Assembly: GCA_949879765.1 (NCBI GenBank)
Contig: CATLBQ010000001.1
Coordinates: forward strand, 95,742 to 159,741
DNA from: an uncultured Bacilli bacterium
GTDB lineage: Bacteria; Bacillota_I; Bacilli_A; ML615J-28; CAG-313
DNA: 64,000 bases
Reading direction: 5' to 3'
A model generated the notes under the pieces. That model searched no databases. It was given only the letters and a program-made list of their open reading frames with translations, and had not been told where the DNA came from. Shown in pieces: positions 3,998-46,729 of this stretch. The number at the start of each line of letters is the position of its first letter. Position 1 is the first letter of the stretch. A program made the position numbers and the translations under genes.

Positions 3998-4041
3998 GTT
4001 CTTTTTTTTGTGCGCCTCCATATAATAGTAGTGGTGTTAGA

Positions 4042-4290: not shown

Positions 4291-5413
4291 ACAACGCTAT
4301 TTGGTAAAAACCCATTCCCAATATGTCGGTTTACTGAATGGGCTATCCATATATCACTTACAGGCTAATGATGAAACCATATCCTTTTTGTGCAATCAAA
4401 AATCACTAGAGGCACTTCAAAAATACGAGATTCCCTTATCTATTGTCGATCGAAAAAAGAAATTTATTTCGTCCTTTTTTTTGCGAAAAAAAATAGTATG
4501 GATAGGGCTTTTTTTTCTACTAGGCATTTTTTTGCTCAATCAAGTGTTTATTCGTGAAATTGATTTTGCAAATTCAAATCAAGACCCCAATGTATATTGG
4601 TCGGTTAAAAAATATACCAAACGTATTGGTCCTTACTTGTATTTGACCAAAAGCGTAAATGAAGTATCACAAGAATTGAGGACAATATATTACCAGTATG
4701 CCTATGTTGGCATTCAAAAACGGGGTGCAAAATTATGGATTGATATTGAACATCAAGATGTAAGCGCCGAAGAAGAAAATAAACAGCCCCTCTATGGTGA
4801 ATACATTGCAAAATACGATGCGTTCATTACATCCATTGATTTAAAAGCGGGTGTACCGATTGCTGAAATTGGAGAGGTGGTACGCAAGGGAAGTTTACTG
4901 GCAACTAGCAATACTCAGTATAAAGATGCCCTGTATAATAAAGATAAATTTGTGCCTTTAGTAGGAGAAGTGTATGGTGAAGTGCATACGTATGAAACGT
5001 ATACCGTGCTTAAAAAAGAGGAAACATTGGTATATACAGGAGAGGAAAAAAAGACGTATGCTTTTCAATTTTTCAATCATTTGTTTGCGCGAGATGAAAA
5101 ATATTATCCATATGAACATAAAAAATCTTATGAACGCTTCTCATTATTTCAAAAAATTAAACTGATGGAATGCATTACCTACGAAAAAAAGCGGGTAGAG
5201 ATAGAGCGTAATGAGGCTGAGGCGAAGAAGATATCAGAACTTAACATATATCAAAATTTTGAAAAAGAACGAACAAATCAAAAGGAAAAAATCGTTTCTA
5301 TACAACTCTTACATAACGAAGAATCAGAAACAGATTATACATTTGTATACTTGGTTACTGCCTATAGAAATATTGCAGAATTTCGTACGTTTGGACTTGC
5401 TGAAGAACATTAA
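4226..5413 (+). CDS. yqfD: Sporulation protein YqfD-like (single-pass membrane protein)
   Basis: 395 aa. The N-terminal region, a central TM (IVWIGLFFLLGIFLL) and a long C-terminal domain fit the YqfD family. The position between rpsU and glyQS/dnaG parallels the Bacillus yqf region. Confidence 0.45.
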   Translation: MKLQLKEKLKKWSLPKPKQKSRQRYLVKTHSQYVGLLNGLSIYHLQANDETISFLCNQKSLEALQKYEIPLSIVDRKKKFISSFFLRKKIVWIGLFFLLGIFLLNQVFIREIDFANSNQDPNVYWSVKKYTKRIGPYLYLTKSVNEVSQELRTIYYQYAYVGIQKRGAKLWIDIEHQDVSAEEENKQPLYGEYIAKYDAFITSIDLKAGVPIAEIGEVVRKGSLLATSNTQYKDALYNKDKFVPLVGEVYGEVHTYETYTVLKKEETLVYTGEEKKTYAFQFFNHLFARDEKYYPYEHKKSYERFSLFQKIKLMECITYEKKRVEIERNEAEAKKISELNIYQNFEKERTNQKEKIVSIQLLHNEESETDYTFVYLVTAYRNIAEFRTFGLAEEH

Positions 5414-11859: not shown

Positions 11860-11898
11860 TAACAAGATTACAAAAAAATCATGAGAGGAGATGCAAAA

Positions 11899-14800: not shown

Positions 14801-17800
14801 ATAATGCGAAATATGTGGTAACGATGAAAGCTAAACTCGACTGGAATAGTACAGAAAACAATCTAAATGATAGTTATAGTTTTTCTTTCTACGTTGATTA
14901 TGAAACACCTCGTGTGTTAGGTGCCAATTACCGAAAGGTATATGATAAGTCTGAAGAACGGTATCATTATTTTGTTGATTTAGAAGTTTATGATAACCAC
15001 TATGTCCAATCTATTCGCCCTGTTGTACTATATACCAATGAGGCGACTGGCAAATTGACGTATACGTCTTTAACTGATAATCCAATTCCGGTATATCAAA
15101 AGAATCGTGGTGAAAAAACCATTGTTGAAGTTGAAATTACAGATTACATGGATATCATCAAAGAAACCAATTTATCGGAAGGTCTTGCTTTCCATATCGA
15201 TGACTATGCGATGAATTCGAATATCTACTATATTTCTTTACCAGAATTAGATAGCAAAAATTTGGCTTTTACTGAAGATACATTAGAAGTGAGTGTAAAT
15301 GATACATTTGATTTAAGACAATTGATGAAGGTAAATGGTCAAGAAGGCATCAATACAGATTACTTAGGTAACTTAAGTTGGACTTCTACAAATCCTTCAG
15401 TAGTAAAAGTGTCTGGTGGTCAAATTGAGGCGCTTCAAGAAGGAAAAGCAACCATTCTTTGTGAAAGTTTAGTCACACATAAACGAATTTCAATTGTAAT
15501 CAATGTTGCAGCGAAGAATGACAATGATAATCCGTTATCTGGAGCCAATGTAGGTCTAGAAGATTTAAAATTTGTTTCTTACAATACATTATTTGCTTTT
15601 GAAAGTGATAACGACCACAGTGAGATTGGTTTAACTGGGTCTATTAATTTCTTTGATACGAAACCAAGCATTTCTTGCTATCCTAGTGAGAGTGTGAAAT
15701 TAAATTATGTGTTAAAACCATGGAATTTAAATGAAGATCGTTATACATTATCTTATAGTTCATCCAATGAAAAAGTAGTTCAAGTCGATAAAAACGGTGT
15801 GGTGACTGCTGTAGGTGAAGGTAAAGCTAGAATTAGCCTTCGTATCACCATTGATGGAAAAACCTCTACATTAGTAGCTCGTTGTGAAGTTACGGTAAAG
15901 AGTCCATTCATTGTAGAAAATCGTACACTTACAGAATATAAAGGTCTTGGTGGGGATGTTGTCATTCCTGATGACCTTGGAATTATGTATATTGGTTCTT
16001 TTGCATTCTGTCATTATAAGGTAGACAATAAAATAGAACCAGAAGATCCAGATGATTTTGATTCAAAAAAGATTCCTTTTGGAAATGATACGATTACATC
16101 AGTTGTCATTCCTGAAGGTGTTGAAGAAATTCAAAAATATGCATTCTATCAATGTACAGCATTAAGAAGAGTGAATCTTCCTACAAGTTGTACCAAAATA
16201 TATGAATATGCATTTTATAATGATACAGCATTACAACAAATCAATCTTGAAAATGTAGTTGTTATTGCAGCAAGAACATTTTATAATTGTGAAAGTTTAT
16301 TAGAAACAGATACAGCAAAAGCCAATACAATTGGTGAAGAAGCTTTTGCAAAATGTAAAAATATTCGTTCTGCTGATTTAAGAGAACTAAAAAGAAGTGG
16401 TAAAAATGCCTTTTTAGATTGTATCCGTTTATCTACAGTATTACTTGGAAAATGGACAAAATTGAGTGAAGGTATCTTTACGAATACAAGATTAACTGAG
16501 GTTACTGTATATAGCACATATGTACCTGATCAAGCATTTAAAGGCTGTGAAAGATTAACCAAAATTTCTTTTGAAAACGAATTGACTTATTTAGGAGATG
16601 CTGTTTTTGAAGGATGTCTTCGTCTTGAAAATATTGAATTCAAAAAAGGCGTTGAATATATGGGAACCGATTTGGTTAATGGTTGTAATGCGTTAAAGAC
16701 ATTAACTCTTCCATCATCAGAAGTAGAAATTGCTGATTATGCCTTCCAAAATAGTGGTATCGAAACGGTTGTTTTTGCTAAAGATACTTACATTGTATCT
16801 GCTGGTGGTAGTTTATTCAAATCTTGTGATCGTTTACAACAAATTGATGCTAGTGCATCTCAATATTATGCATATAAAGATGGCGCATTATATACTCAAG
16901 ATTTAAAGACCTTGATGTTGATTCATCCAAATACATTACTTTCTATTTACAATGTACCTGATTCTGTTGAATATATTGCACCATCTGCAGTATCTTGTAA
17001 TGAAAGTTTAACTGCTATTTATTTTAGTAACTCTTCTCAAATAAAAGAAATCGGAGCCAATGCTTTTGCGGAATGTCCAAATTTACAAATGGTAACTTTA
17101 CCAAACCATGATGTAACGATTGGGAATCACGCATTCTTCTATTGTCCAAAATTAGAAACTGTTAATGTCAATTTTGTAACTGCTATAGGAGATTATGCAT
17201 TCTCTTATACCAATGTAAGAAATATTACGATTGCTGAGGGAGCAACGCTTGGTGAAGGTGCCTTCTATCAAACAAGCAATTTATATGAACTTGTTCTTGG
17301 GGCTAATGTTCAAATTGGATTTGGTTCTTTCTCAAAGAGTGGGATTGTGAACGTTCAAATGCCAGAAGCTGGTGGTGTAGTCATTGGCGATCAAGCATTT
17401 GCTCTAAACCAATCATTGATGAGCATTGATTTAACCAAAGCTACTGGTAAAATTGGTGATGCTGCATTCTATAATTGTTCTAAATTAACTAGTATTGCTT
17501 TTGATCAAATTGAAGAAATTGGGGATCGAGCATTTGCAGATTGTACACGCCTTGAATCAGTAGAACTAGGTACAACATTGACAAAAATTGGTGAAAGTGC
17601 CTTTGCGCAATATGCAACAGGTTCAACATCTGGGGCTGCGTTTACATCGTTAGTCCTTCCAGATAGTTTAGTATACATTGGAGCAGATGCGTTCCATGGC
17701 TGTCGTTTGTTAGAAAGTATTGATTTAAATCAAGTTACAACAATTGGTGAACAAGCTTTTGCACATTGTGTGCAATTGGCTAGTGTTACACTAGGCGAGG

Positions 17801-19338
17801 GACTAAAGCATTTATCTGATAGTATTTTCTATGGTTGTAGTCAACTTGTAAGTATTAATTTAGAAAATGTAGAGACCATTGCTCGTGCGGTTTTCTATTC
17901 CACAAGCCTTGAACAAATCAATTTGGCTAAGGTTACACGCGTCGATGATTCTGCTTTCCTAAATTGTGGAAACTTAATGGAAGTTTATGCCCCATGTCTT
18001 CAATATATTGGTCAAATGGCCTTCCAATCCACAGGTCTTACGCAAATTGATTTACCAGCATTAGAAGAAGTCAAAGCACAAGCCTTTTACCAAACAAAAA
18101 TTGCAGAGTTTGGTATATCTGAAAATTTAACTTCTGTTGAGTATACTGCCTTTATGGGTATGGATGATTTAACTCATTTTTATGCATATGGTGATCCATA
18201 TAAACAAGATACGATTGCATTTAGTAATGTGATTTTAGATCAAGGGGTATTGTATACAATTTTACCTGATGGTAGTTATCAACTTGTTCAATATCCAGTT
18301 GCTAAAACTGATGAAACATACACGGTGTTAGATGGTACTACTCGATTAGATTATTTCAGCGCTGCTTATAATGAATATATTCAAAGGGTTGTATTCCCAA
18401 CTAGTTTAAAAGCAATTGCCAATGGGGCGTTCTATGGTTGTAGTCAACTTAACGAAGTAGAATTCAATTCTTATTATGCACCACAATTAGAAGGAACAAT
18501 GACTTTGGCATCTCAAGTCAAACCTACTCCAGAAACATATGAAGCATTTGATATTTTATATGGTCATGATTATTATTATTTTGCGGGAGCAGGATTGCAA
18601 TACTACTATGCTATGGTTTATCAAAACTTCATTGATACTGTTGGTAAAAAGTATCAGCCAATGACATACATTTATCCTGAAAATAGTAGTGGATATGATT
18701 CCATTTTGTACACAGTTTATTTTAAAGATAAAGTAGATGAAGAAGGAAATCGTATTACAACTGGCTTCACAATGGATAATTTTGCTATCAATTTTAATGA
18801 AGCGATAAAATTGTTACCAGACACTGTTACTTTTAAAGATGAGACGGTGATTCGAAATGCTAGAACAGCATATAATGCTTTATTGATGCACGAAGAACAA
18901 CTTTCCTTTATTTCACAAGAAGATGTAGCAAAATTAATTGAAAAAGAAACAGCTCTAAATGTTTTATTGATGAACCGTACACTTGAACGAATTTATGTTG
19001 TAGAAAACTCAAAATATTCATACGACCAAATCAAAGCAGCGTATCTTCAATTCTCTAAATTAACAAAAGAAGAAGTTGATTTACTAGAAAATGCTTCTCA
19101 ATTAGATGAAGCTATTGCTAAACTTGAAGCTGCGATGAAGCAAAAAGTTGACTTTAACAAAGAATACAACGAGTATGAACCAGTAAAAGAACTACCAGAA
19201 CCTACCCCAACTCCTGAACCTGAGCCTAAAAATAATACCGCAATTATAGTGGTATCCATTCTTGGTGGTATTTTAGTGATTGCAGGTGGCGTGGTTTTAG
19301 TACTGTATTTGCTCAAAAAGAAAGGAAATAAGAAATGA
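11899..19338 (+). CDS. Giant cell-surface subtilisin-like serine protease (S8) with PA domain insert, Big_2 Ig-like domains, long BspA-type leucine-rich repeat array, Pro/Thr/Glu linker and C-terminal TM anchor; N-terminal lipoprotein signal
   Basis: Start at the ATG at 11899 with an AGAGGAG RBS. The lipobox is FIIGC. The catalytic triad motifs are VLDTGCDYTHTAF (Asp), HGTHVAGIIGG (His) and GTSMACPNM (Ser). The PA-like insert reads GKIALVKRGDISFEEKVQYAYEAGAIACIVYN. A Big_2 domain is seen at NPSVVKVSGGQIEALQEGKATI. Dozens of LRR_5-like repeats have the pattern IGxxAFxxCxxLxxI. The C-terminus reads EPTPTPEPEP, then a TM helix (IIVVSILGGILVIAGGVVLVLYLL), then KKKGNKK. Confidence 0.85.
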   Translation: MKIFRKTLIICGLFCALFIIGCAKPADSLENSKNPNHNGTSDSFKLDVSQVTADLKADFIDSLNKDLVKEIADLKKDEEVGVIITLSDQSLVSDYLLSSAENFEAYSKTKAYKVLQRTLFSKQKQLIELLEQKRLVKEVKYQYETILDGIYVRTKASNVQAITQLPGVERVMVSNTYDKPDAVTNPVQVYDTGIFDSSDVKYTGKGTIVAVLDTGCDYTHTAFTTHEVIDPLYSRDDIEGMLDGLFANRYTADLETRDVYYSSKIPYGYDYADKDPDIMPYESEHGTHVAGIIGGYDDTICGVAIDTQLAIMKVFSDYKQGAEDGDILAALEDSVKLGVDAINMSLGTSCGFTREEDEAYKSEIYDNIEKAGISLVVAASNDHSSAYGSEQGNTNKASNPDSATVGSPSTYHAALSVASINGNMDKYMLANGNQTVFFLESFNQSAKEYNFYEMLGIPNNQSVVYDYVTVPGFGLSANYTGLDIQGKIALVKRGDISFEEKVQYAYEAGAIACIVYNNVFGDIVMTVGNNLQIPTVSISKDDGVKLASVPSGKIEFNMNNIAGPFMSDFSSWGPTPNLELKPEITAHGGNILSAIPGGGYDKLSGTSMACPNMCGVAVLVRQYVKEKFPGLSTTEIRDMVNQLVTSTATIALDRLGNPYSPRKQGAGLASLFNAVNTKAYLTVDGKNVAKAELGDDPKRTGVYEFEFNLINMSDQALRYDLSSVVMTETLSSSDEEYVAELGYILDGKTSYAVSNGTLNGTVCEVAAGATSVVKVKITLSDADKNYLNRYFKNGMYVEGFIKLKSLSNDVDLNIPYLAFYGDWSEAPIFDLDYYTVETESHNNAIDDEDKIKADYYATKPLGKYYYDYIIPLGSYVYTMDESLYNPIPATMEHAAVSYFTDCISGIYGVFTGLLRGAKELSIEIKNELTGEVIWENTEYNCYKSHYSGAPRPYYCDIDLEAGDLALDNNAKYVVTMKAKLDWNSTENNLNDSYSFSFYVDYETPRVLGANYRKVYDKSEERYHYFVDLEVYDNHYVQSIRPVVLYTNEATGKLTYTSLTDNPIPVYQKNRGEKTIVEVEITDYMDIIKETNLSEGLAFHIDDYAMNSNIYYISLPELDSKNLAFTEDTLEVSVNDTFDLRQLMKVNGQEGINTDYLGNLSWTSTNPSVVKVSGGQIEALQEGKATILCESLVTHKRISIVINVAAKNDNDNPLSGANVGLEDLKFVSYNTLFAFESDNDHSEIGLTGSINFFDTKPSISCYPSESVKLNYVLKPWNLNEDRYTLSYSSSNEKVVQVDKNGVVTAVGEGKARISLRITIDGKTSTLVARCEVTVKSPFIVENRTLTEYKGLGGDVVIPDDLGIMYIGSFAFCHYKVDNKIEPEDPDDFDSKKIPFGNDTITSVVIPEGVEEIQKYAFYQCTALRRVNLPTSCTKIYEYAFYNDTALQQINLENVVVIAARTFYNCESLLETDTAKANTIGEEAFAKCKNIRSADLRELKRSGKNAFLDCIRLSTVLLGKWTKLSEGIFTNTRLTEVTVYSTYVPDQAFKGCERLTKISFENELTYLGDAVFEGCLRLENIEFKKGVEYMGTDLVNGCNALKTLTLPSSEVEIADYAFQNSGIETVVFAKDTYIVSAGGSLFKSCDRLQQIDASASQYYAYKDGALYTQDLKTLMLIHPNTLLSIYNVPDSVEYIAPSAVSCNESLTAIYFSNSSQIKEIGANAFAECPNLQMVTLPNHDVTIGNHAFFYCPKLETVNVNFVTAIGDYAFSYTNVRNITIAEGATLGEGAFYQTSNLYELVLGANVQIGFGSFSKSGIVNVQMPEAGGVVIGDQAFALNQSLMSIDLTKATGKIGDAAFYNCSKLTSIAFDQIEEIGDRAFADCTRLESVELGTTLTKIGESAFAQYATGSTSGAAFTSLVLPDSLVYIGADAFHGCRLLESIDLNQVTTIGEQAFAHCVQLASVTLGEGLKHLSDSIFYGCSQLVSINLENVETIARAVFYSTSLEQINLAKVTRVDDSAFLNCGNLMEVYAPCLQYIGQMAFQSTGLTQIDLPALEEVKAQAFYQTKIAEFGISENLTSVEYTAFMGMDDLTHFYAYGDPYKQDTIAFSNVILDQGVLYTILPDGSYQLVQYPVAKTDETYTVLDGTTRLDYFSAAYNEYIQRVVFPTSLKAIANGAFYGCSQLNEVEFNSYYAPQLEGTMTLASQVKPTPETYEAFDILYGHDYYYFAGAGLQYYYAMVYQNFIDTVGKKYQPMTYIYPENSSGYDSILYTVYFKDKVDEEGNRITTGFTMDNFAINFNEAIKLLPDTVTFKDETVIRNARTAYNALLMHEEQLSFISQEDVAKLIEKETALNVLLMNRTLERIYVVENSKYSYDQIKAAYLQFSKLTKEEVDLLENASQLDEAIAKLEAAMKQKVDFNKEYNEYEPVKELPEPTPTPEPEPKNNTAIIVVSILGGILVIAGGVVLVLYLLKKKGNKK

Positions 19339-34035: not shown

Positions 34036-34104
34036 AAATTATTTATCATTATAAGGCAAATAAAAAACGAAATATGGTATAATGTGTCAAGTGAGGTGAA
34101 GAAC

Positions 34105-36150
34105 ATGTTTAAAATTGCCATTGATGGACCCGCTGGATCAGGAAAATCTACTATCTCAAAAATAATTGCGAAAGAATTGAATTTTGAATATATCGATACG
34201 GGAGCAATGTATCGCGCAATTACGTTAAAGGCGATTCGTTTAGGAATTGATATGGAAAACCCTGAGGCTTATGGGTTCTTAGCAAATACTGAATTAGATG
34301 TTTGCAATGGACGTTTTATTATGGATGGTGAAGATGTAAGCGATGCAATTCGCAGCGTCGAAGTTACCAATCAAGTTTCTACACCTTCTAAAATAGAAGT
34401 AGTCAGAGATTATCTTGTTGATTATCAACGTAAAATCAGCAATGCAAAGAATTGTATCATGGATGGTCGTGATATTGGAACAGTTGTATTAAAAGACGCC
34501 TCACTGAAAATCTATTTGGATGCGCGAGTTGAATGCCGCGCAAGAAGAAGAATGATGGAGCGTGCTGAAAAGGGAATACATTTGACCCTTGAACAGACCA
34601 TCCAAGAGATTGAACTTCGTGATTGGAAAGATTCCACACGTAAGTATAGCCCTCTTCGTTGTGCAGAGGATGCTATAGTCATTGATAGTACCGATTTATC
34701 AATTGATGAAGTAGTTAGTCGGATTATAAATTTAGTGATTGAGAGGAAAAACAAAATGAGTAAAGGTACTTACACTGAGGGACAAAACGTTAGAGGATGC
34801 ATTATCAATGTGACCAAGGATGCAATCTATTTAATTTTAGGGGAAGATGAGAAAGGCGTTATCTACAGCAACGATTTAAAAGATTATACAGAAGGTCAAA
34901 AACTTTACAATCTATATCATGAGGGTGAAGAATTTGAAGCAAGCGTAAAAACTGTAGGTAAGGATCGCAAAACTGGCGAACCACTTTATATTTTATCTAC
35001 CAAACTAGAAGATGAAAAAGCAAAATTAAGCATTTTTGAAGAAATCAAAGAAAAGGATGAAATCATCAAAGCAAAAGTAACCCGCATTACTGCAGTTGGT
35101 GCAGATATGGATTACAAAGGATTTAAATTATTCTTACCAGCAAAATTCATTGATTTGAAAGAAGATGCATTGAAAACGTTAAAGGGTCAAGTATTAGATG
35201 TAATGGTTATTTATGTCAATAAGGATCGTTTCCAAGTGACTGTATCTAACGTAATGGCTATGAAAAAGCAATATCGTCTTGCTAAGGAAGCAGCATATGC
35301 GGCAATTTCAGAAGGAATGGAAATAACTGGAGAAGTTGTCAATGTACTTCCATATGGTGCAATCATTAACCTCGGTGAAGTGAGTGGTTTATTACACCAA
35401 TCAGAAATTGATCATAAGCCTATTAGAAATGTTGCCAATCGTCTAAAAGTAGGCGATAAAGTAAATGTAAAAGTAATCGGAATCAATGGAAATAAGATTT
35501 CTTTATCTATGAAAGCTCTTGTTCCACACCCATGGGATGTTTTAAAAGAACAATATCATGTAGGTGATGTGTTTGAAGGAACAGTACAAAAAATTATTCC
35601 TGCAGGTGTATTGATTACGTTAACATCTGAATATGCTGGACTAATGCCAAGAGGTGAATATTCTTGGTTCAGTAATGTGAAAATTGAAGATAATGTCCAA
35701 GAGGGTTCAACATTAAAAGTACAAGTGATGAATATCGATGATGAGAAAAAACGGGTAAGTTTATCTCATAAAGTGACTTTGGAAAATACTTGGGTAGATA
35801 TCAAACTACGTAGAGGCGAAAAAATTTCAGTTGTATTAGCAAGTACAACTGAACATGGAGCACTTGTCAATTACAAGAATGTTCAAGGTTTCTTACCAAT
35901 CAATGAAGTCACTAGTTTAAAGCGTATTTCAAAAGTTGATGAAGTATTCCCTATCGGTAGTACGATTGAAGTAATGGTTCAAGAATGTGATCCATCTGTT
36001 GCTAAATTGCGCGTTAGTGCAAAAGCAGTTGAGGTGGCCAAAGAAAGGGCTACTTTTGACAAATATATCGAACAACAAGACAAAGAAACACCAACTAGTA
36101 CAATCGGTGATTTACTTGGTGATCTTCGTTTTGATAAGGACGAAGACTAA
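34105..36150 (+). CDS. cmk-rpsA: In-frame fusion of cytidylate kinase (Cmk, N-terminal ~217 aa) and a ribosomal protein S1 homolog (C-terminal ~465 aa, four S1 domains)
   Basis: Start at the ATG at 34105 (GAGGTG RBS). The Cmk P-loop is IAIDGPAGSGKSTISK and the lid region is also present. There is no stop before MSKGTYTEGQ at 34756. S1 repeats follow (for example GEVVNVLPYGAIINLG and GTVQKIIPAGVLITL). An internal AGAGGA RBS lies 9 nt before the ATG at 34756. Confidence 0.8.
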   Translation: MFKIAIDGPAGSGKSTISKIIAKELNFEYIDTGAMYRAITLKAIRLGIDMENPEAYGFLANTELDVCNGRFIMDGEDVSDAIRSVEVTNQVSTPSKIEVVRDYLVDYQRKISNAKNCIMDGRDIGTVVLKDASLKIYLDARVECRARRRMMERAEKGIHLTLEQTIQEIELRDWKDSTRKYSPLRCAEDAIVIDSTDLSIDEVVSRIINLVIERKNKMSKGTYTEGQNVRGCIINVTKDAIYLILGEDEKGVIYSNDLKDYTEGQKLYNLYHEGEEFEASVKTVGKDRKTGEPLYILSTKLEDEKAKLSIFEEIKEKDEIIKAKVTRITAVGADMDYKGFKLFLPAKFIDLKEDALKTLKGQVLDVMVIYVNKDRFQVTVSNVMAMKKQYRLAKEAAYAAISEGMEITGEVVNVLPYGAIINLGEVSGLLHQSEIDHKPIRNVANRLKVGDKVNVKVIGINGNKISLSMKALVPHPWDVLKEQYHVGDVFEGTVQKIIPAGVLITLTSEYAGLMPRGEYSWFSNVKIEDNVQEGSTLKVQVMNIDDEKKRVSLSHKVTLENTWVDIKLRRGEKISVVLASTTEHGALVNYKNVQGFLPINEVTSLKRISKVDEVFPIGSTIEVMVQECDPSVAKLRVSAKAVEVAKERATFDKYIEQQDKETPTSTIGDLLGDLRFDKDED

Positions 36151-38687: not shown

Positions 38688-39842
38688 ATGAAAAAAATAA
38701 TATGTTTATTGATGATGATGGCTTTTGTGCTTTGTTCGTGTCAAAAAAAGCCAATAGGTGGACAAACACAAATGGCAATGATAAAAGAATTCTATTTTGA
38801 CGAAACGCAGCAAATGAGATATTCAAGTGTTGATGATCAAATTGATACACAATTGTTTTTGAAAATCCAACAGACCTATCAAAAAATCAGTGAAAATCAT
38901 CATACGCCAATTCATCTCAACTGCGAATCCTATTGGAATGAAAAAATAGTTAGTTATTTGGTTCATTTTTATGCACCAAATGTAGAAATGTTAAAAACCT
39001 ATCATTTTGATCTAAGGAGTAAACAATCTATTCAAATCAATTCTAAGCAACTAAAAAACGCATTGGATGCACATTTTGATCATCAATTCAGTTTTGATAC
39101 TCAGGATATGGGACTGATTCAAACAAGTATCCAATCTGATGGTTTTCACGTATATTTGTCGCCATTACTAACGAAAAATAAAACGGAAGAAGTCATTTTA
39201 CCTTATGAGGAAAGTTGGTTAGAAAAAGAGGTAGAACTAACTACACCATTATTGAAGCTTATTGCCATTACATTTGACGATGGTCCTAGTGCTTGGTCCA
39301 AGGAACTAGTGGATTTGTTAGATGAATTGGATATTGTCGCAACTTTTTTTGTCTTAGGTGGAAATGTAGAACGTTATTCTAACGAATTAAAGTACATTGC
39401 TTCTCACGGACATGAAATTGGTAATCATTCTTACAATCATCCTGATTTTAAAAAATTGACACTAGATCAAGCACTCTTAGAGATTGAGAAGACGCAACAA
39501 ATAGTTTATGAGACAATTCATAAATATCCAAGGTTGTTTCGGTTTCCGTATGGTTCTGTTCATCAAGAAGTCCTTCATCGTATATCCCTTCGGAGTATTT
39601 TATGGACAGCAGATTCGTTAGATTGGCAGTGTTATGATAGTCAGTGGATTATTGAACAAATGAAAAAGCAAGTTAAGGAACATGGAATCATGCTCTTTCA
39701 CGATTTCAAATATTACAATCAGAAGGCCATTATCCAATTGGTAAAAGATTTGAAAGCAGAAGGATACACTTTTGTCACAGTGACAGAATTGCTAGGATTT
39801 TATGGCGAGGAAGATTTTTTAGAGTCAAAAAATTATTTTTAA
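38688..39842 (+). CDS. Lipoprotein with C-terminal polysaccharide deacetylase (NodB homology) domain
   Basis: Signal peptide MMMAFVLCSC. NodB motifs TFDDGP and HGHEIGNHSYNH, then RFPYG and LFHD. Confidence 0.75.
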   Translation: MKKIICLLMMMAFVLCSCQKKPIGGQTQMAMIKEFYFDETQQMRYSSVDDQIDTQLFLKIQQTYQKISENHHTPIHLNCESYWNEKIVSYLVHFYAPNVEMLKTYHFDLRSKQSIQINSKQLKNALDAHFDHQFSFDTQDMGLIQTSIQSDGFHVYLSPLLTKNKTEEVILPYEESWLEKEVELTTPLLKLIAITFDDGPSAWSKELVDLLDELDIVATFFVLGGNVERYSNELKYIASHGHEIGNHSYNHPDFKKLTLDQALLEIEKTQQIVYETIHKYPRLFRFPYGSVHQEVLHRISLRSILWTADSLDWQCYDSQWIIEQMKKQVKEHGIMLFHDFKYYNQKAIIQLVKDLKAEGYTFVTVTELLGFYGEEDFLESKNYF

Positions 39843-39986
39843 TGTTAAATTTAAAGGAATATTTTGCAAAAATATTCCTTTTTGTATTGTCTTGTAGTTT
39901 TTTAATAAAACAATATCAATTTATTGCAAAAAAGTAAAGATGATGTTATAATAAAAGTGATTTTTTAGAAGGGAAATTTGCGGAAT

Positions 39987-42137
39987 ATGACAAAAATCAC
40001 AAAAAAATTGTTATCGATGATTGCCTTTTTGGGAACACTTCTCATCTTGACATCATGTTTAAACGCCAATATGGCAATAACCAAAGTAAAATTAGAGTTT
40101 GATCAATATGATTTATATGTTGGTGAAACGCTTCAAACTCAAGTTTTTATTACTGTGAATGGAAAGGAAGAAACAGTAGAATTGGGTTATCAATCTTATG
40201 ATGAAACGATTGCTACATTTAATAATGGTGAGTTAGTTGGTGTAAATCATGGGGTAGTTCGCGTAAAAGTATATGCGAAAAATGATACAAGTGTATATGA
40301 TACTGCAATTGTTCACGTTGCTTTAGATTTGAATTACGATGTAACTTTTAATATCCCAGCGATACTTTCTCAAACGGAAGTAATTCAAATTGTACCACAA
40401 TTGCCTGAAGATGCGGATGTAGTATTAACTTATGCATCTACGAATCCTGAAGTGGTCAGTGTTGATGCACAAGGAAAATTAGTTGCTGTCAATGGTGGAA
40501 AAGCAATGGTTCAAATTCGTGTAACTAGTGCTGAAGATCAATATGTTTATCATGATTATACATTTGAAGTTGTAGTTCCTTATACGATTACATACACTAT
40601 AAATGGTGAAGTTTGTGAGACAGCTAATCCAACGACTTATATACCTGATACGGATGAAATCGTATTGGTTGCACCTAATATGCCAGGCTATATATTTGAA
40701 GGTTGGTTTGATGGAGATATTTTGGTAGAAAAAATTACCAATGAATGGACTAGCAATGTAGTATTAGAGGGAAAAGTGAGAGAATATACTATCCAAGAGG
40801 TAAAAGAAACTGCCAATGAGACTGTTGTATTCAGTGGTGTCATTACTGCTGTTTCTCCTGTGAATAGTTCTTATAACAATTTCTCTATTTTAGTCAGTGA
40901 TGATACTGCCTCTATTATGGTGTATCGTATATCTTCTAAGACATATGATTACAATGAATTTATAGCAGGTAAAACCATCAAAGTAACGGGGAAAAATACA
41001 CCATACAATGGATTGAATGAAATCGCATCAGGAGCAAAAATTGAATTTTTGGGCGAAACTGATGTACCTGGTTTTGTTGAATTAGATTATGTACCTACAA
41101 ATGAAGAATTATTGCAATTACAATGTAGTGTTGTACAACTGACATTGACTTATGTATCTGGTACGGTTGGAACGGGTACCAATGTTATATTCAAAGATGC
41201 CGATGGTCTTACTCTTACAGTAAGAGGAGATGCAAATTGGGGCAATGTTGATAAACTAGACTTAAAAGTTGATAGAAAATACACAATTACAGGATTTGTA
41301 TCTTGGTATAATGGTCCACAAATTGCCAATTTACCTAATTATCCATTTGTAGAAGCCATTGTAAATGATGAAACAATAGCGATGGACTACCTAGATCAAA
41401 TTGTTTTAGAAAGTACAGTTACTGAAGATTTACCTTTACCAAAAGTAGAAGGTGTGACTTGGACGATAAAAGAGACGAGTGCTGCTGAACTTGTAGATGG
41501 TATCGTTGTGATTACTCGCGGTGATGCTGATGTAGTGATTACACTTGTTGCGATTTATCCTTTAAATGGTGTAAATTATGCAAAGGAATTTGAAGTAACG
41601 GTAAAAGCAATGGGCACAGTAGGTCCTGTTGCCACATTTGATTTTGGTACAACTGAAGCTACAGGTTATACAGCCAACAAGAAATTAACGATTCAAAATC
41701 TAATTACTGCATCTAGTGTGCAAATTGTAGCGCATTATGCTCAAATCACAAAATCTTCTAATGCGCCTCATACAGCAATGGGATGCTTTGCAGTAATTTG
41801 TCCTGTTCGAAAGAGTAATAGTACAAAAGCTGGATATTTAGAATTTACATTTACTGATGCTGTAAAGAGTATTGAGTTTGAAGCAAGTTGGTGGTCCGCA
41901 TTAGATAAAAATAATGCTTCTAAAATTGTAAAATTTGAAGTACAATATTCTACAGATGGTGCGACTTGGACATCTGTTTCTTTAGGTAGTGCAAGTTCAC
42001 TAGACGCAAATTCCTACACAACATTTACTGTCGCTTGTCCTGATGCAAAATATGTTAGAATTTATACTGAAGGTGACAAGACATATACTAGTAATCAAAA
42101 TGCACGTATTGCTATTGATAATGTAAAATTCTTTTAA
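39987..42137 (+). CDS. Surface lipoprotein: Big_2 Ig-like domains, one Listeria-Bacteroides repeat, a conserved module of about 300 aa shared with the next gene, and a beta-rich C-terminal domain
   Basis: Lipobox LTSC. Big_2-like segments (ETLQTQVFITVNGKEETVELGYQSYDETIATFNNGELVGVNHGVVRVKVYA). The Flg_new signature is GYIFEGWFDG. The shared module reads REYTIQEVKETANETVVFSGVITAV...NPYNGLNEIA...FVEA. The start is probably the ATG at 39987, but a TTG at 39978 is possible. Confidence 0.65.
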   Translation: MTKITKKLLSMIAFLGTLLILTSCLNANMAITKVKLEFDQYDLYVGETLQTQVFITVNGKEETVELGYQSYDETIATFNNGELVGVNHGVVRVKVYAKNDTSVYDTAIVHVALDLNYDVTFNIPAILSQTEVIQIVPQLPEDADVVLTYASTNPEVVSVDAQGKLVAVNGGKAMVQIRVTSAEDQYVYHDYTFEVVVPYTITYTINGEVCETANPTTYIPDTDEIVLVAPNMPGYIFEGWFDGDILVEKITNEWTSNVVLEGKVREYTIQEVKETANETVVFSGVITAVSPVNSSYNNFSILVSDDTASIMVYRISSKTYDYNEFIAGKTIKVTGKNTPYNGLNEIASGAKIEFLGETDVPGFVELDYVPTNEELLQLQCSVVQLTLTYVSGTVGTGTNVIFKDADGLTLTVRGDANWGNVDKLDLKVDRKYTITGFVSWYNGPQIANLPNYPFVEAIVNDETIAMDYLDQIVLESTVTEDLPLPKVEGVTWTIKETSAAELVDGIVVITRGDADVVITLVAIYPLNGVNYAKEFEVTVKAMGTVGPVATFDFGTTEATGYTANKKLTIQNLITASSVQIVAHYAQITKSSNAPHTAMGCFAVICPVRKSNSTKAGYLEFTFTDAVKSIEFEASWWSALDKNNASKIVKFEVQYSTDGATWTSVSLGSASSLDANSYTTFTVACPDAKYVRIYTEGDKTYTSNQNARIAIDNVKFF

Positions 42138-42328
42138 TGAATGGAAAAACACTTATTCAACGAATAAGTGTTTTTGTTTTCTTTATAAATATAAGGAAAA
42201 GATGAGTTTACCTTCCCTTAAAAGATGAAAAAGTGGTAGATCTCACTAATTGAATAATGAAAATACTTGCAAAAGAAAAAAAGTAATGATATAATAAAAA
42301 ACGTATTATTATGAAGGGAAATACAAAT

Positions 42329-45300
42329 ATGACGAAAATGAGAAAAAGATTATTTGTAGCAGTAGCTACATTTGGTATTTTATTGATTTTGTCTGCTTGT
42401 ACGACACTAGGTGAAATCAAAGTTTCACTAAATGCAACGTATGAAGTAACAGAAGGGCAGACTATTGAAATAGCACCACTTGTCACAAAAGATGGAGCCG
42501 AATATCAAACTGCTTTGGGATATGTGTCTTTGGATACTTCCATAGCAAAATTTGTAGATGGAAAATTGACAGGCGTAAAACCTGGTCAAGTGCGTATAAA
42601 AGTATATGCGGTAGAACAACCTAAAGCCTATGCTACAGCCTTAGTAACTGTAACAAACAACAATCTACTATCTGCAACATTTGATATTGAACAAGAAATG
42701 AATGTAAATGAAACACAACAAATACATTATCAAATCACAGGAACAGAGTTAGAACCTCTTGTAAATTATCGCTCTTTAAATGAAGAAATTTTGACTGTGG
42801 ATGAAAATGGTAACCTAGTTGCAAAGTCTGAAGGTAGTGCTACTATTATTATCCGTTTGACATCTGCGAATGATCCTAGTATTTACCGTGAATATAAATA
42901 TGAAATCAAAATAACATATTATACATACTCTATAGAGTATGTGTTAAATGGGGGAAAGAATCACAAAGATAACCCAACAGGTATTCATTTGAATCAATTA
43001 CCGATAACGCTTGGTAATCCAACTAAAGCTGGATATAATTTTGTAGGTTGGTATGATAATGCTGAATTTGATAATCAATCAATTACTGTAATTGAACAAA
43101 TGGAAAATGAGCATATTCAATTGTTTGCTAAGTGGGAAAAAGTAGACTACACCATTGAATATAATTTAAATGGTGGTACCAATCATATAGATAATCCACT
43201 TGTTTACAATATTGAAACGGATACAATTACACTTTTACCTGCCACAAAAGCATATTATGTATTTGACGGATGGTATATTGGGAACATTAAGGTAGAGACT
43301 ATTCAAAAGGGTACCATAGGTAATCAAATTTTAACTGCGAAATATACACCCGTTGAATATACCATTACGTATTACTTAGATGGTGGTATGACAACCAACC
43401 GAAATGCTTATACAGTAGAGACTGAAACCATAGTTTTATCGGACGCAGTAAAAGATAATTACAATTTCCTAGGATGGTTTGACTCTACTGGTCAACAAAT
43501 TACAGAAATTGTAACTGGTACTACTGGCAATCTTGAACTTACTGCACGATATGTAGCAATTGATTATACTATTGATTATGTATTGAATGGTGGTGTAAAT
43601 CAGGAAAATAATCCAACAAAATATAATATAGAAAGCAATGATATCCTTCTTTTAGTCCCTACCAAGAATGGTTATATCTTCTTAGGATGGTTTAATGAAA
43701 AGAATGAAGAAGTTACAACCATCAAGAATGGCTCAACTGGTAATGTAACTTTACTAGCAAAATGGGAAGCTGACACTTATACAGTAACATTCGATAGTAA
43801 TGGAGGTTCAACTATAGATTCAGTTGAGTATACCATTGAATCAGAAGATATTACATTAGCTAAACCAACCAAGACGGGTTATACCTTCTTAGGATGGTTT
43901 AATGAAAAGAATGAAGAAGTTACAACCATCAAGAATGGATCAACTGGTGATTTAGCACTTACCGCTAAATGGGAAATTGTAGCATATGAAGTGGCTTTAG
44001 ATGCTGATGGTGGTGCAGATGTTGAAAATATTCAATTTACAGTAGAATCATCTTTAATTGAATTGCCATCAACAGCCAAACAGGGCTATACATTCCTTGG
44101 TTGGTTTGATGAAGCGGATCAACAGGTTAAAGCAATTGAAACGGGTACAGTAGGCAATCTTAAATTAAAAGCCAAATATCAAGTGAAGACCTATACGATT
44201 CAATATGAAGGTTTAAATGCTGGAGATAGTGCAAACAATCCTACAAAATATACCATTGAATCGAGTACAATCGTACTTCAAAATCCAATTTTAGTTAGTG
44301 GTTATATTTTTGAAGGTTGGTATAACGAAGATGACGAAGCAATTTATGAAATTAAGAGTGAAACACTTAGTGATCTTGTCATAAAAGCAAAATTAAGAGA
44401 ATATACCATTCAAGAAGTAAAGCAAACAACAAATGAAGTAGCAGTGTTTACAGGTACAATTACGGCTATTTCTGTATTGAGTAATCAATATAATAATTAC
44501 TCTATTTTAGTAAATGATGGTACTGCATCCATTATGGTTTATCGTCTTTCTAACAAAACATATGCGTACGAACAATTTGCACTGGGTCAAAAAATTAGAG
44601 TGAAAGGTCAAAATGTACCATTCAATGGACTAAATGAGATTGCAACCATTGATTCTATTGAGATTGTAGAAGAAGGTACACCACTTCAACCAATAGAATT
44701 AGAGGCTATTCCTTCAGAAGAAGAATTGCTTGCAATGCAATGCGGAATAGTAAAAATGACCCTTACATTTGTATCTGGTACTTTAGGTGCAAAACAAAAT
44801 GCAATTTTTAAAGATGCAAACGGTAAGCAGATGACAGTTCGAGGTGATAGTGACTGGGGTGTTATTGATAGTATAACATTACGTACTGGAAGAGAATACA
44901 CTATTATTGGATTTGTATCTTGGTTTAATGGACCACAAATCAGCAATGTATCTAATTATCCATTTGTTGAAGCAGTGATGACTGATGAGATGATAGCTAT
45001 GGATTATTTAGATCAAATTAAAGTAGAAAGTACAGCCACTGAAGACTTTTCATTACCATCTGTAGAAGGCGTGACTTGGACAATGAAAGAAACTAGTGCT
45101 GCAGAACTTGTAGATGGTACTGTCAATATTATTCGTGGTGAGGCTGATGTAGTGATTACACTTGTTGCCACATATACTTTGAATGGAAAAGGATACAATA
45201 AAGAATTTGATGTCATTGTTAAAAAGAAATCTTCTGGTAGTGAAGAATGGGCTTTAGTCACAAATGAATCTGAATTAAACGTAGGCGATACCATTGTTAT

Positions 45301-46405
45301 TGTGGCAAATGGTTACGATGTCGCTCTAAGTACAACGCAAAATCCAAATAATCGTGGCGAAACTGCTATTGTTAGATCTGGGAATACGATTACAATTGAT
45401 GATAATGTTCAAATTCTTACATTAGTGGGTGGAACAAAAGATGGGACATTTGGTTTTGATACAGGTAGTGGATATTTGTATGCGGCTGGTGGAACAGGTA
45501 AAAATAATTATTTAAAAGTTGAAAATAGTTTATCTGATAATTCTAGTTGGAAGATTACAATTGATGAAACTGGTGTTGCAAAAGTAATTGCCCAAGGAGA
45601 TGCAATTCGAAATGTAATACAATATAATTATACTAGTAAATTATTTTCTTGTTATGCTAGTGGTCAAAAAGATATTTCAATTTATAAACTAACTGAATCA
45701 ACTCCTTTGACCGATGAACAAATTGCCCAAAAATATTTGAACAATTTATCAGTAGTAACTGAAACCAATACTGATGTAGAGTTAACACAAGATGATAATT
45801 TGTCATGGCAATTGAATACAACTACTGATGTTGCAGAAATAGTAGAGGGTGTTTTACTTGTAACTCCAGGAGCTGCTGATGTAACAATTACGCTAGTTGC
45901 AATATATACTTTAAATGGAAAATCTTATGATAGAGAGTTTGAAATAGTAGTTAAGAAAAAGGATGAAGTTGGAACTAAGACTGAGAAAACTTATACATAT
46001 CAGTTTGTATCAGGTGCTTTAAAAACTACAGGCGGAACTGCAACATTGGGAGAAATCGATTGGACATATGGCTCAATTACATATGCAGGAATTGATACCA
46101 CAGCGGCAAAAAGAGGTTTCCAAATTGGAAGCGGTAGCAAACCAACTATGTCTTTTGTATTATCAACTAATAGTATAAAAGTAAACATAAAATCAGTAGT
46201 AATTAATGCATCCATTGCTAGTGGCGGAACTGCTAAATTGTCGGTTTCTATTGGTGGGGTGAATTATTTAGACGCACAAGCGTTGACTACTACATCAACC
46301 GATTATACTATTACACCAAATGCTTCAGGTGATATTGCAATTTCATTTGCGAATACTGCAAAGGCATTTTATATCAAATCAATTACAATTGTTTATGAAG
46401 AGTAG
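42329..46405 (+). CDS. Large surface lipoprotein (paralog of the previous gene): Big_2 domains, about nine tandem Listeria-Bacteroides repeats, the same shared module of about 300 aa, additional beta-rich domains
   Basis: Lipobox LSAC. Repeated GWYD/GWFN...LxAKW units every 66 aa or so. The shared module reads REYTIQEVKQTTNEVAVFTGTITAI...VPFNGLNEIA. The start is the ATG at 42329, with the same upstream gaagggaaat as the paralog. Confidence 0.7.
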   Translation: MTKMRKRLFVAVATFGILLILSACTTLGEIKVSLNATYEVTEGQTIEIAPLVTKDGAEYQTALGYVSLDTSIAKFVDGKLTGVKPGQVRIKVYAVEQPKAYATALVTVTNNNLLSATFDIEQEMNVNETQQIHYQITGTELEPLVNYRSLNEEILTVDENGNLVAKSEGSATIIIRLTSANDPSIYREYKYEIKITYYTYSIEYVLNGGKNHKDNPTGIHLNQLPITLGNPTKAGYNFVGWYDNAEFDNQSITVIEQMENEHIQLFAKWEKVDYTIEYNLNGGTNHIDNPLVYNIETDTITLLPATKAYYVFDGWYIGNIKVETIQKGTIGNQILTAKYTPVEYTITYYLDGGMTTNRNAYTVETETIVLSDAVKDNYNFLGWFDSTGQQITEIVTGTTGNLELTARYVAIDYTIDYVLNGGVNQENNPTKYNIESNDILLLVPTKNGYIFLGWFNEKNEEVTTIKNGSTGNVTLLAKWEADTYTVTFDSNGGSTIDSVEYTIESEDITLAKPTKTGYTFLGWFNEKNEEVTTIKNGSTGDLALTAKWEIVAYEVALDADGGADVENIQFTVESSLIELPSTAKQGYTFLGWFDEADQQVKAIETGTVGNLKLKAKYQVKTYTIQYEGLNAGDSANNPTKYTIESSTIVLQNPILVSGYIFEGWYNEDDEAIYEIKSETLSDLVIKAKLREYTIQEVKQTTNEVAVFTGTITAISVLSNQYNNYSILVNDGTASIMVYRLSNKTYAYEQFALGQKIRVKGQNVPFNGLNEIATIDSIEIVEEGTPLQPIELEAIPSEEELLAMQCGIVKMTLTFVSGTLGAKQNAIFKDANGKQMTVRGDSDWGVIDSITLRTGREYTIIGFVSWFNGPQISNVSNYPFVEAVMTDEMIAMDYLDQIKVESTATEDFSLPSVEGVTWTMKETSAAELVDGTVNIIRGEADVVITLVATYTLNGKGYNKEFDVIVKKKSSGSEEWALVTNESELNVGDTIVIVANGYDVALSTTQNPNNRGETAIVRSGNTITIDDNVQILTLVGGTKDGTFGFDTGSGYLYAAGGTGKNNYLKVENSLSDNSSWKITIDETGVAKVIAQGDAIRNVIQYNYTSKLFSCYASGQKDISIYKLTESTPLTDEQIAQKYLNNLSVVTETNTDVELTQDDNLSWQLNTTTDVAEIVEGVLLVTPGAADVTITLVAIYTLNGKSYDREFEIVVKKKDEVGTKTEKTYTYQFVSGALKTTGGTATLGEIDWTYGSITYAGIDTTAAKRGFQIGSGSKPTMSFVLSTNSIKVNIKSVVINASIASGGTAKLSVSIGGVNYLDAQALTTTSTDYTITPNASGDIAISFANTAKAFYIKSITIVYEE
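43679..43750 (+). repeat. Intragenic tandem repeat copy 1 (198-bp period, one Flg_new repeat unit)
   Basis: About 70 nt, ggttatatcttcttaggatggtttaatgaaaagaatgaagaagttacaaccatcaagaatgg..., differing by 2 nt from the copy at 43877. Confidence 0.8.
43877..43948 (+). repeat. Intragenic tandem repeat copy 2
   Basis: Near-identical to 43679-43750. It encodes the duplicated YxFLGWFNEKNEEVTTIKNGSTG. Confidence 0.8.
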
Positions 46406-46486: not shown

Positions 46487-46729
46487 ATGAATTTAAATAA
46501 GGTTATGAATTTTATTGCGGAGAATAATATACAACCAGAGGCAGTATTTGCGCTGGTAGAAAAAGTAAGATATTTAGATTTGACGGATGAAGCTAGTATT
46601 CGACAGGTTATTCGAGATGTGTCTAAACTTGCTGGAAAAAATTTGGATAAGGCGGAAGAAAATAAGCTTGTTCGTGATATTATGTCGAATGGGGTAAATG
46701 AAAATATCTTTAATAGTTTTAATAGTTAA
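46487..46729 (+). CDS. Small protein resembling stage VI sporulation protein F (SpoVIF/YjcC family)
   Basis: 80 aa. The pattern EASIRQVIRDVSKLAGKNLDKAEENKLVRDIMSNG resembles the SpoVIF core (TVRQVIHRVAAMANRPVSKQMEDKIVESITSGG). Confidence 0.35.
   Translation: MNLNKVMNFIAENNIQPEAVFALVEKVRYLDLTDEASIRQVIRDVSKLAGKNLDKAEENKLVRDIMSNGVNENIFNSFNS

Follow-up and report, generated by a model that had tools for sequence, protein, structure and literature searches.

Two long open reading frames (ORFs), here termed genes A and B, lie head to tail on the + strand of a 64,000-nucleotide stretch of DNA from an uncultured Bacilli bacterium (contig CATLBQ010000001.1, positions 95,742 to 159,741; hereafter the window). 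Both encode predicted lipoproteins with a common block of 276 amino acids (aa), and the question raised by the locus is what this block consists of, what it may bind and why it is present in two neighbouring genes. We found that the block is modelled as two consecutive OB folds followed by an aBig_2 (atrophied immunoglobulin, Ig) domain, and that several of its homologues are encoded next to nucleases and importers. In our judgement there is about an even chance that A and B are anchored at the cell surface, one on a short and one on a long stalk, and bind extracellular nucleic acid without catalytic activity.

39987..42137, + strand: gene A, 716-aa predicted lipoprotein; the ORF listing extends the start to TTG 39978
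42329..46405, + strand: gene B, 1358-aa predicted lipoprotein; the alternative upstream ATG 42311 would give 1364 aa

A and B Are Tandem Paralogues With Different Stalks and Tips

In a BLASTP comparison the two proteins were 58% identical over 347 aa (A196-540 and B625-971, with B numbered from ATG 42311; E 1e-125), and their N-terminal 247 aa were 36% identical. The shared block, which runs from REYTIQEVK to (T/I)VK, showed 63% identity over its 276 aa with zero gaps. By domain the identity was 75% for aBig_2, 57% for OB fold 1 (OB1), 59% for OB fold 2 (OB2) and 34-39% for the Ig-like domains. This is in agreement with a preliminary description of this DNA, in which A and B were two adjacent paralogous surface lipoproteins with a common module that was about 60% identical by eye. 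Similarity driven by low complexity or repeats was ruled out by the gapless block and by its 379 independent relatives.

The signal peptides (MTKITKKLLSMIAFLGTLLILTS before the cysteine in A, MTKITKK...LILTSC; MTKMRKRLFVAVATFGILLILSA before the cysteine in B, MTKMRKR...LILSAC) both have the basic n-region, hydrophobic h-region and lipobox [LVI][ASTVI][GAS]C of signal peptidase II substrates, and A and B are predicted to be lipoproteins. The lipoboxes that had been noted in both genes were recovered as LTS before the cysteine in A and LSA in B. The domains were placed as follows.

39987..40058, + strand: A, lipoprotein signal peptide, lipobox L-T-S-C with Cys24, read from the translation
40059..40571, + strand: A, two Ig-like (Big_2-type) domains, aa 25-195; Pfam Big_2 23.3 bits against a cut-off of 22.8; 34-39% identity to B
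40572..40778, + strand: A, single Flg_new (Listeria-Bacteroides) repeat, aa 196-264; PF09479 29.3 bits against a cut-off of 27; one GWF motif
40779..41078, + strand: A, predicted OB1, aa 265-364
41079..41363, + strand: A, predicted OB2, aa 365-459, with a WYNGPQ motif at its end; Foldseek tandem-OB matches 5z7d, 1jmc and 4l5r; hhalign to the DUF5689 region of homologue P0113, 98%
41364..41606, + strand: A, putative aBig_2 (atrophied Ig) domain, aa 460-540; PF20578 18.8-19 bits against a cut-off of 27; 75% identity to the first copy in B
41607..42134, + strand: A, C-terminal beta-sandwich, discoidin/CBM32-like, aa 541-716, isoelectric point (pI) 7.9; F5_F8_type_C 25.3 bits against a cut-off of 28.2
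42329..42400, + strand: B, lipoprotein signal peptide, lipobox L-S-A-C, read from the translation
42401..42916, + strand: B, two Ig-like domains; BLASTP to the A N-terminus 36%, E 1e-37; Big_2 15.8 bits, sub-threshold
42917..44395, + strand: B, seven tandem Flg_new repeats forming a variable stalk; PF09479 228 bits in 7 stretches; seven GW[FY] motifs
44396..44695, + strand: B, predicted OB1; 57% identity to A OB1; weak match to ExeM/NucH NF033681, E 1.3e-3
44696..44980, + strand: B, predicted OB2; 59% identity to A OB2; weak DUF5689 match across OB1-OB2, E 0.014
44981..45223, + strand: B, putative aBig_2, first copy; PF20578 26 bits against a cut-off of 27
45224..45703, + strand: B, domain X, 160 aa, absent from A; recurs as the C-terminal domain of homologues P0121, P0128 and P0135
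45704..45955, + strand: B, putative aBig_2, second copy; 40% identity to A461-540; matched by the domain hidden Markov model
45956..46402, + strand: B, C-terminal beta-sandwich, 149 aa, pI 8.7; recurs at the C-termini of homologues P0059, P0086, P0103 and P0150

Protein A accordingly has the order signal peptide, two Ig-like domains, one Flg_new repeat, shared block and a C-terminal domain of 176 aa. In B the signal peptide and two Ig-like domains are followed by seven Flg_new repeats, the shared block, domain X, a second aBig_2 and a C-terminal domain of 149 aa; domain X and the second aBig_2 are additions to the domains first listed. Big_2 domains had been assigned to both proteins, and only that of A exceeded the Pfam threshold. 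The single Flg_new repeat of A stands, whereas the roughly nine repeats initially counted in B were reduced to seven by Pfam stretches and GW[FY] motifs alike. The Flg_new region of B also scored 159.9 bits against TIGR02543. Its repeats have diverged at the DNA level (about 70% nucleotide identity), and TRF found no DNA-level tandem repeats in this region. The aBig_2 assignment, which is sub-threshold in A and B, is far above the Pfam cut-off in relatives (up to E 5e-126), and the structural model of the A/B block described below shows a helix and a beta-sandwich at this position.

The C-terminal domains of A and B were found to be unrelated in sequence (BLASTP E 0.09). That of A matched the CBM32 structure 5zu6 in PDB (E 1.6e-3; E 6e-3 by profile) and missed the gathering score of F5/8 type C (CBM32, PF00754), so the assignment is suggestive; the same domain ends homologues P0051 and P0085. 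A profile search of PDB with the C-terminus of B gave only non-significant hits to CBM36/CBM60 (E 0.017-0.05). Domain X had no Pfam or NCBIfam match, and in PDB only a non-significant one to the HA17 beta-trefoil (E 0.15). Neither choice-of-anchor-J nor other NCBIfam models matched the tip domains. A PHROGs "tail protein" match fell in the Ig-like region and was judged uninformative, and a phage protein search gave no match.

The Block Is Modelled as a Tandem OB Unit Followed by aBig_2

An exhaustive HMMER search of 1.84 billion protein cluster representatives with a two-sequence profile identified 379 relatives of the block (E up to 1e-3), of which 90 remained at the stricter limit of 1e-10. 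By word-indexed protein search block A had no match and the family profile A3 only 7 matches, and a genome scan with profile A1 returned two close relatives only. The block is rare and composite. Three sub-profiles separated it into three independently mobile domains: D1 of about 95 aa, which forms arrays of at least nine copies in other proteins, D2 of about 95 aa, and D3, which is aBig_2. The full D1-D2-D3 order was found in few proteins only. About 115 of 147 family matches had a lipobox-like N-terminus. A Pfam scan of 93 homologues identified tRNA_anti-codon (PF01336) in 50 (E up to 1e-3 or 1e-4), aBig_2 in 43, BOF in 8, LTD in 5, DUF5689 in 3 and the ComEC-type OB domain DUF4131 in 3; a nuclease catalytic domain (Endonuclease_1) was present in one only.

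The block was modelled with AlphaFold2 from a 27-sequence alignment (A3) of D1-D2(-D3) units. The model reached a predicted local distance difference test score (pLDDT) of 95.1 and a predicted template modelling score of 0.84, whereas a two-sequence alignment gave an unusable model with pLDDT 57. It consists of two five-stranded barrels with a short helix each, followed by a helix and an Ig-like beta-sandwich, and the barrels show the five-stranded closed form with a helix between strands 3 and 4 that characterizes the OB fold. As modelled, the shared block is therefore not one unknown module, as had been described, but OB1, OB2 and an aBig_2 Ig-like domain; the accompanying guess of an OB fold held for two consecutive domains.

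When the model was compared to PDB with Foldseek, the best matches were tandem-OB DNA binders, namely p204 HINab with double-stranded DNA (dsDNA; E 6e-7), RPA70 AB with single-stranded DNA, p202 HIN with dsDNA, Teb1 AB and CST. Next came the anticodon-binding domains of class II aminoacyl-tRNA synthetases, and structure searches with the OB pair returned nucleic-acid binders almost exclusively.

Remote homology pointed in the same direction. A sequence search of PDB with a single block found chance antibody matches only. The family profile A3 matched RPA32 (6i52, E 9e-6). Homologues P0004, P0006 and P0013 passed the PF01336 gathering cut-off of 27 with 52.1, 38.9 and 33.6 bits, respectively, and through them A and B are assigned, by remote homology, to the OB-fold nucleic-acid-binding superfamily. 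In hhalign, OB1-OB2 (A3 columns 11-197) aligned to residues 431-618 of P0113 with a probability of 98.1% (E 1.2e-13), and by Pfam these residues are a full-length DUF5689 (19-217/217, 63.9 bits). The N-terminal OB part of the NCBIfam model NF033681 (ExeM/NucH) was weakly matched by B (E 1.3e-3), A (0.049) and homologue P0006 (5e-9). The scores of the A/B pair, 17.7 and 12.5 bits, came from the OB part only and compare with a cut-off of 300 bits for the complete OB plus EEP model. Judged from these profile comparisons, DUF5689 and the OB region of ExeM/NucH/YhcR-type nucleases are distantly related to the tandem OB unit, and the block is therefore no longer wholly unknown. The likeness of its N-terminal part to the OB folds of secreted nucleases, which had been proposed from the sequence, thus found support in the model, the RPA32 match, PF01336 in the homologues and the weak ExeM/NucH matches. 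Pfam and NCBIfam scans identified no catalytic domain in A or B, including EEP, SNase, Endonuclease_1 and phosphoesterase domains; the initial reading had likewise noted that a nuclease domain is missing.

Homologues of the Block Are Found in Putative Nucleic Acid Salvage Operons

From the 379 representatives, the genomic context was examined for seven non-syntenic homologues and for P0003, which is syntenic to A/B. Six of the seven are encoded in operons with the general order ABC importer, SNase nuclease, multi-OB lipoprotein, DHH phosphoesterases and SurE. Over the block these six, which are closest among the non-syntenic homologues, share 31-37% identity with A; their gene orders are as follows.

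P0006 (L013 910-13913): ABC ATPase, two permeases, SBP_bac_8, SNase, multi-OB lipoprotein, two DHH/DHHA1, SurE
P0007 (L016 333-13573): ABC ATPase, two permeases, SBP_bac_8, SNase, multi-OB lipoprotein, two DHH/DHHA1, SurE
P0010 (L018 1138-13677): ABC ATPase, two permeases, SBP_bac_8, SNase, multi-OB lipoprotein, two DHH/DHHA1; the contig ends before a Pfam-assigned SurE
P0005 (L017 831-9446, contig cut upstream): P0005, a second OB/aBig_2 protein, DHH, DHH, SurE
P0013 (L015 528-6799): SBP_bac_8, SNase homologue, P0013
P0004 (L009 1468-11052, 25% GC): ABC genes and a substrate-binding protein (SBP) gene, SNase, P0004, LTD-SNase

All SNase, LTD-SNase and SBP products of these loci carry a lipobox. 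Placement in an operon with SNase and ABC genes was found for P0004, P0006, P0007, P0010 and P0013, but not for A and B, which, at least locally, stand apart from any such operon. The context of the seventh homologue, P0034 from an organism with 49% GC, was uninformative. The six operon loci probably represent about three independent lineages, and the association is therefore to be read as suggestive and not as statistical. Neither glycoside hydrolase nor polysaccharide-utilisation genes were found beside A, B or the homologues examined.

Taken by itself, the operon shared by these low-GC gut metagenome contigs looks like a complete pathway for scavenging extracellular nucleic acid, with an unannotated non-catalytic OB component.

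Nucleic Acid as the Candidate Ligand

Fold, family relationships and the operons in which homologues lie together point to nucleic acid as the ligand of the OB pair. The combination of a missing catalytic domain with the multivalent OB arrays in the family suggests capture or retention rather than cleavage. In the mechanism that we propose, a modular surface lipoprotein gene would have been duplicated in tandem within this lineage to give A and B, each product being lipid-anchored by its N-terminal cysteine. The stalk, made of the two Ig-like domains and the Flg_new repeats (one in A, seven in B), would hold a conserved head off the membrane, this head consisting of the two OB folds, aBig_2 and one or more variable beta-sandwich tips. 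The tandem OB unit would be the ligand-binding core and may bind extracellular DNA, RNA or oligonucleotides at the cell surface. Bound nucleic acid could then be held for nucleases or importers encoded elsewhere, or could attach the cell to a matrix containing extracellular DNA (eDNA). The short and the long stalk would present one binding unit at two distances from the membrane.

Several observations weigh against this proposal. OB folds are also known as sugar and protein binders. The OB pair is acidic (pI 4.3-4.8, net charge -8 to -9), a property shared throughout the family including its operon-linked members, which argues against simple electrostatic DNA binding, and the family alignment holds no invariant basic residue. 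PF01336 did not match A or B even at E up to 10, and the DUF5689 (PF18942) cut-off of 28.6 bits was missed by the block of B (15.7 bits, E 0.014), with no match for A. Both genes are monocistronic and lie amid housekeeping genes, their neighbours being gpsA, a polysaccharide deacetylase gene, spoVIF and tldD/pmbA, and tblastn with the L009, L013 and L015 proteins found no SNase or SBP_bac_8 homologue in the window. All hints for the C-terminal domains, faint as they are, lead to carbohydrate-binding modules (CBM32, CBM36/60 and a ricin-like trefoil). Finally, DNA binding by DdbD, the best-studied relative, is itself a structural prediction and no measurement (bioRxiv 10.1101/2025.03.18.642099).

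These points give some weight to A and B being adhesins for glycans or host ligands, in which the tips, and maybe the OB folds, bind carbohydrate, with the OB pair acting chiefly as a rigid spacer and with tip specificities that have diverged. The discoidin/CBM32-like C-terminus of A and the faint resemblances of the B C-terminus to CBM36/60 and of domain X to the HA17 trefoil would fit such a role. So would the fact that the tips are the only non-acidic domains and differ between A and B, as well as a combination of Ig-like and Flg_new domains that is typical of adhesins, e.g., internalins; acidic OB units are moreover a poor fit for DNA binding. Every one of the CBM hints is, however, below its family threshold, nearly all structural matches of the OB pair are nucleic-acid binders, and the OB domains are at least as constrained as the tip of A (see below). 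The neighbours of the homologues are nuclease and nucleotide-salvage genes and not glycoside hydrolase or polysaccharide-utilisation genes, and this context favours nucleic acid over glycan as the ligand. We regard adhesins of this kind as unlikely.

The acidic surface and the position of the OB lipoprotein gene directly 3' of the SNase gene in homologues would also suit a protein-docking scaffold, in which the OB pair recruits a secreted or lipoprotein nuclease (a basic one would match the charge) or another enzyme to the surface and does not itself bind nucleic acid. A and B have no nuclease neighbour, though, and arrays of nine or more OB1 copies in the family would suit multivalent attachment to a polymer better than the docking of a single partner; a scaffold is in our view improbable. 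Still less probable, and in our opinion hardly credible, are variable surface antigens that serve in coating and in evasion of immunity or phages through their repeat number, with OB and Ig-like domains lacking a specific ligand. Flg_new counts of 5, 7, at least 8 and 9 across strains and species, inserted domains, assemblies that break within the repeats and a nearest labelled genome from the mollicutes, a group known for variable lipoproteins, are what such antigens would lead one to expect. Against this, all domains are under purifying selection (dN/dS 0.05-0.35), there are no homopolymer or short-repeat tracts for phase variation and TRF found no tandem repeats in the DNA, and the OB block has been kept across distant lineages, where it is found in functional operons.

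Relation to Known Systems

The nearest parallel to the proposed binding of nucleic acid by A and B is provided by DUF5689 lipoproteins. DdbD is encoded in the ddbABCDEF DNA-utilisation locus of B. thetaiotaomicron and was modelled by its authors as p202-like and as binding DNA in partnership with a TonB-dependent transporter (bioRxiv 10.1101/2025.03.18.642099); RA0C_RS04920 of Riemerella anatipestifer is needed for natural transformation (PMC8459023). As is predicted for A and B, these proteins are lipid-anchored, non-catalytic and have tandem OB folds with further beta-sandwich domains downstream, and DdbD shares with the A/B block p202/p204 HIN-dsDNA as structural neighbours. A and B differ in scoring below the DUF5689 threshold, in lacking a TonB-dependent transporter partner and an outer membrane context, and in lying outside a nuclease locus; the Ig-like/Flg_new stalks and aBig_2 are features of A and B.

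Extracytoplasmic, envelope-anchored OB folds of the PF01336 type, often two in tandem, are also found in YhcR of B. subtilis, in ExeM/NucH and in the streptococcal wall-anchored nucleases (SWAN/SsnA), the last of which likewise contain a YhcR-type OB (PMC4118848). Loss of the two-OB region of Shewanella ExeM nearly abolishes its nuclease activity (PMC6085458). Unlike these enzymes, A and B contain no EEP, SNase, Endonuclease_1 or phosphoesterase domain. The operons of the homologues resemble a cluster in M. agalactiae (MAG_5030-5070) that is made up of SNase, ABC and P80 genes and is thought to scavenge nucleic-acid precursors (PMC3585158): both have an SNase lipoprotein, an SBP lipoprotein and an ABC importer. 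A multi-OB lipoprotein is not described for that cluster (PMC3585158), and A and B are uncoupled from any such cluster. Compared to RPA70 DBD-A/B, HIN-200 proteins (AIM2/p202/p204), Teb1 and CST, the identity is 10-22% and the template modelling score of the whole model 0.3-0.47; those proteins are intracellular and basic, whereas the OB units of A and B are acidic and predicted to be extracellular.

The lipoprotein signal, Big_2, Flg_new, the OB fold and aBig_2 are known elements, as is the concept of a surface lipoprotein that binds DNA through OB folds (DUF5689/DdbD). In the searchable literature we found no description of the rare tandem-OB plus aBig_2 unit in monoderm low-GC bacteria, of its conserved place in SNase/ABC/DHH/SurE operons, or of its duplication on a short and a long stalk outside such an operon. 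A broader proposal, which we advance only tentatively, is that OB1-OB2-aBig_2 marks a family, so far undescribed, of "DNA-fishing" surface lipoproteins that lack catalytic activity and are often multivalent, found in low-GC Bacillota and gut bacteria of mollicute-like type, as a monoderm counterpart of DdbD/DUF5689. Ancestrally it would act together with SNase, an ABC importer, DHH phosphoesterases and SurE in scavenging extracellular nucleic acid; in the present genome it would have been duplicated, uncoupled and put on two stalks with different lectin-like tips, and the resulting bifunctional adhesins could bridge eDNA and glycans in the gut matrix.

Extracellular DNA is a nutrient, a biofilm scaffold and a substrate for natural transformation. 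How it is retained by monoderm gut bacteria is poorly understood, and in Bacteroidota a DUF5689 lipoprotein was only recently implicated in DNA utilisation and transformation. If the block binds nucleic acid, an equivalent component would have been identified in low-GC Gram-positive and mollicute-like bacteria. A conserved unannotated gene of the SNase/ABC/DHH/SurE operons would then be explained, a compact domain pair of 200 aa would be available for testing, and A and B would form a natural experiment with one binding unit, two stalk lengths and different tips. Should the ligand be another one, the block is still a recurrent building unit of large unannotated surface proteins in gut metagenomes.

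Duplication, Selection and Stalk Variation

Other strains of the species retain the A/B pair, as do two relatives that are about 83-86% identical over the block. In a more distant relative with 30% GC, P0003 stands alone at the syntenic site after cmk-rpsA, der and gpsA. P0003 is of the B type, with 5 Flg_new repeats, and is colinear with B over its full length. The architecture of B is therefore taken as ancestral, and A as a duplicate specific to this lineage, its stalk shortened and its tip changed. Two adjacent OB/aBig_2 lipoprotein genes, of 1276 aa and 636 aa, were also observed in another lineage (L017 831-6708), so tandem pairs of a long and a short protein recur independently.

Selection was assessed between the window and contig L007, which are about 82% identical in nucleotides and in which the orthologue of A also has 716 aa. 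Ratios of non-synonymous to synonymous substitution rates (dN/dS) of 0.05-0.35 across all domains indicate purifying selection. For gene A the ratio was 0.07-0.22 in every domain, with OB1, OB2 and the C-terminal domain among the most constrained (0.07-0.10). For gene B it was 0.05-0.35, domain X and the C-terminus being least constrained (0.27-0.35).

The variable part is the Flg_new stalk: P0003 has 5 repeats, the window and L007 each have 7, L002 has at least 8 (a scaffold gap lies inside) and L006 has 9. The B orthologue of L006 (about 3950-5150, from a metagenome-assembled genome (MAG) named "Anaeroplasma bactoclasticum") has an identical insert of about 130 aa in two of its nine repeats. 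This insert is apparently helical (YIYRNREEAAAAFLQDFNNFANASY...SKWTAIDATNTTIELK) and amounts to a perfect duplication of about 199 aa within the stalk. L002 carries one repeat not present in the window. Assemblies of this species are interrupted, by a break or an N gap, exactly at Flg_new repeats 4 and 5 (L002 17826-17925; the ends of L003, L004 and L005), which have a long identical stretch in common (LGWFNEKNEEVTTIKNGSTG). An apparent frameshift or pseudogene in gene B of L002 was found to be a scaffold gap of 100 N.

Expression Signals and Flanking Genes

39924..39952, + strand: promoter-like site of A, TTGCAA, 17 nucleotides, TG-TATAAT; 10/12 matches in a consensus scan, extended -10; aligns with the site of B
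39968..39974, + strand: ribosome-binding site of A, GAAGGGA, read directly; the same motif lies 5' of ATG 42329 of B
42145..42175, + strand: intrinsic terminator 3' of A, 14-bp stem followed by a T run
42267..42295, + strand: promoter-like site of B, TTGCAA, 17 nucleotides, TG-TATAAT

The putative promoters of A and B are sigma-70-like with identical hexamers, a -35 element TTGCAA, a 17-nucleotide spacer and an extended -10 element TGnTATAAT. In both genes the ribosome-binding motif GAAGGGA is located 9-12 nucleotides upstream of an ATGAC start. For B we prefer ATG 42329 (1358 aa) to ATG 42311 because it has a ribosome-binding site 9 nucleotides upstream, as in gene A, and ATG 42311 has none. 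The 5' regions had been described as near-identical. This proved too strong, since what they have in common are the promoter motifs, the ribosome-binding site GAAGGGAAAT and ATGAC, the remainder being AT-rich DNA of only moderate similarity. Own promoters together with the strong terminator between the genes argue that A and B are transcribed independently.

The pair is flanked by a gene for a lipoprotein polysaccharide deacetylase (38688-39842, + strand) and by a homologue of the stage VI sporulation gene spoVIF (46487-46729, + strand, 53 bits). At the syntenic site of L008, both the deacetylase gene and gene A are missing.

Organism and Other Observations in the Window

The window has 34% GC. 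Among labelled genomes the MAG named Anaeroplasma bactoclasticum is nearest, sharing 86% aa identity across the block. Anaeroplasma is wall-less and non-sporulating, and a SpoVIF homologue and a polysaccharide deacetylase beside A/B are unexpected for such an organism; a wall-less lifestyle is therefore not assumed here. L007 (JAMPDF010000001.1), a 557-kb contig with 34% GC, is labelled "Prevotella sp.". As it is about 82% identical to the window and syntenic with it (cmk-rpsA, der, gpsA, deacetylase, A, B, tldD, pmbA), this label or the binning is almost certainly wrong.

Elsewhere in the window, positions 11881-19338 (+ strand) encode a protein of 2485 aa in which a subtilase S8 domain is joined to PA and Fn3-like domains and to numerous leucine-rich repeats of the BspA type (LRR_5, 429 bits). 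Genes for a 372-aa Flg_new protein (19335-20453) and an 841-aa SBP_bac_5 protein (20457-22982) come next, then oligopeptide ABC genes, and the whole looks like a cluster for a cell-envelope proteinase and peptide uptake. At 34084-36150 (+ strand) a 688-aa ORF with a GTG start encodes cytidylate kinase fused to a ribosomal protein S1 with four S1 domains, a fusion that is kept in all related loci.

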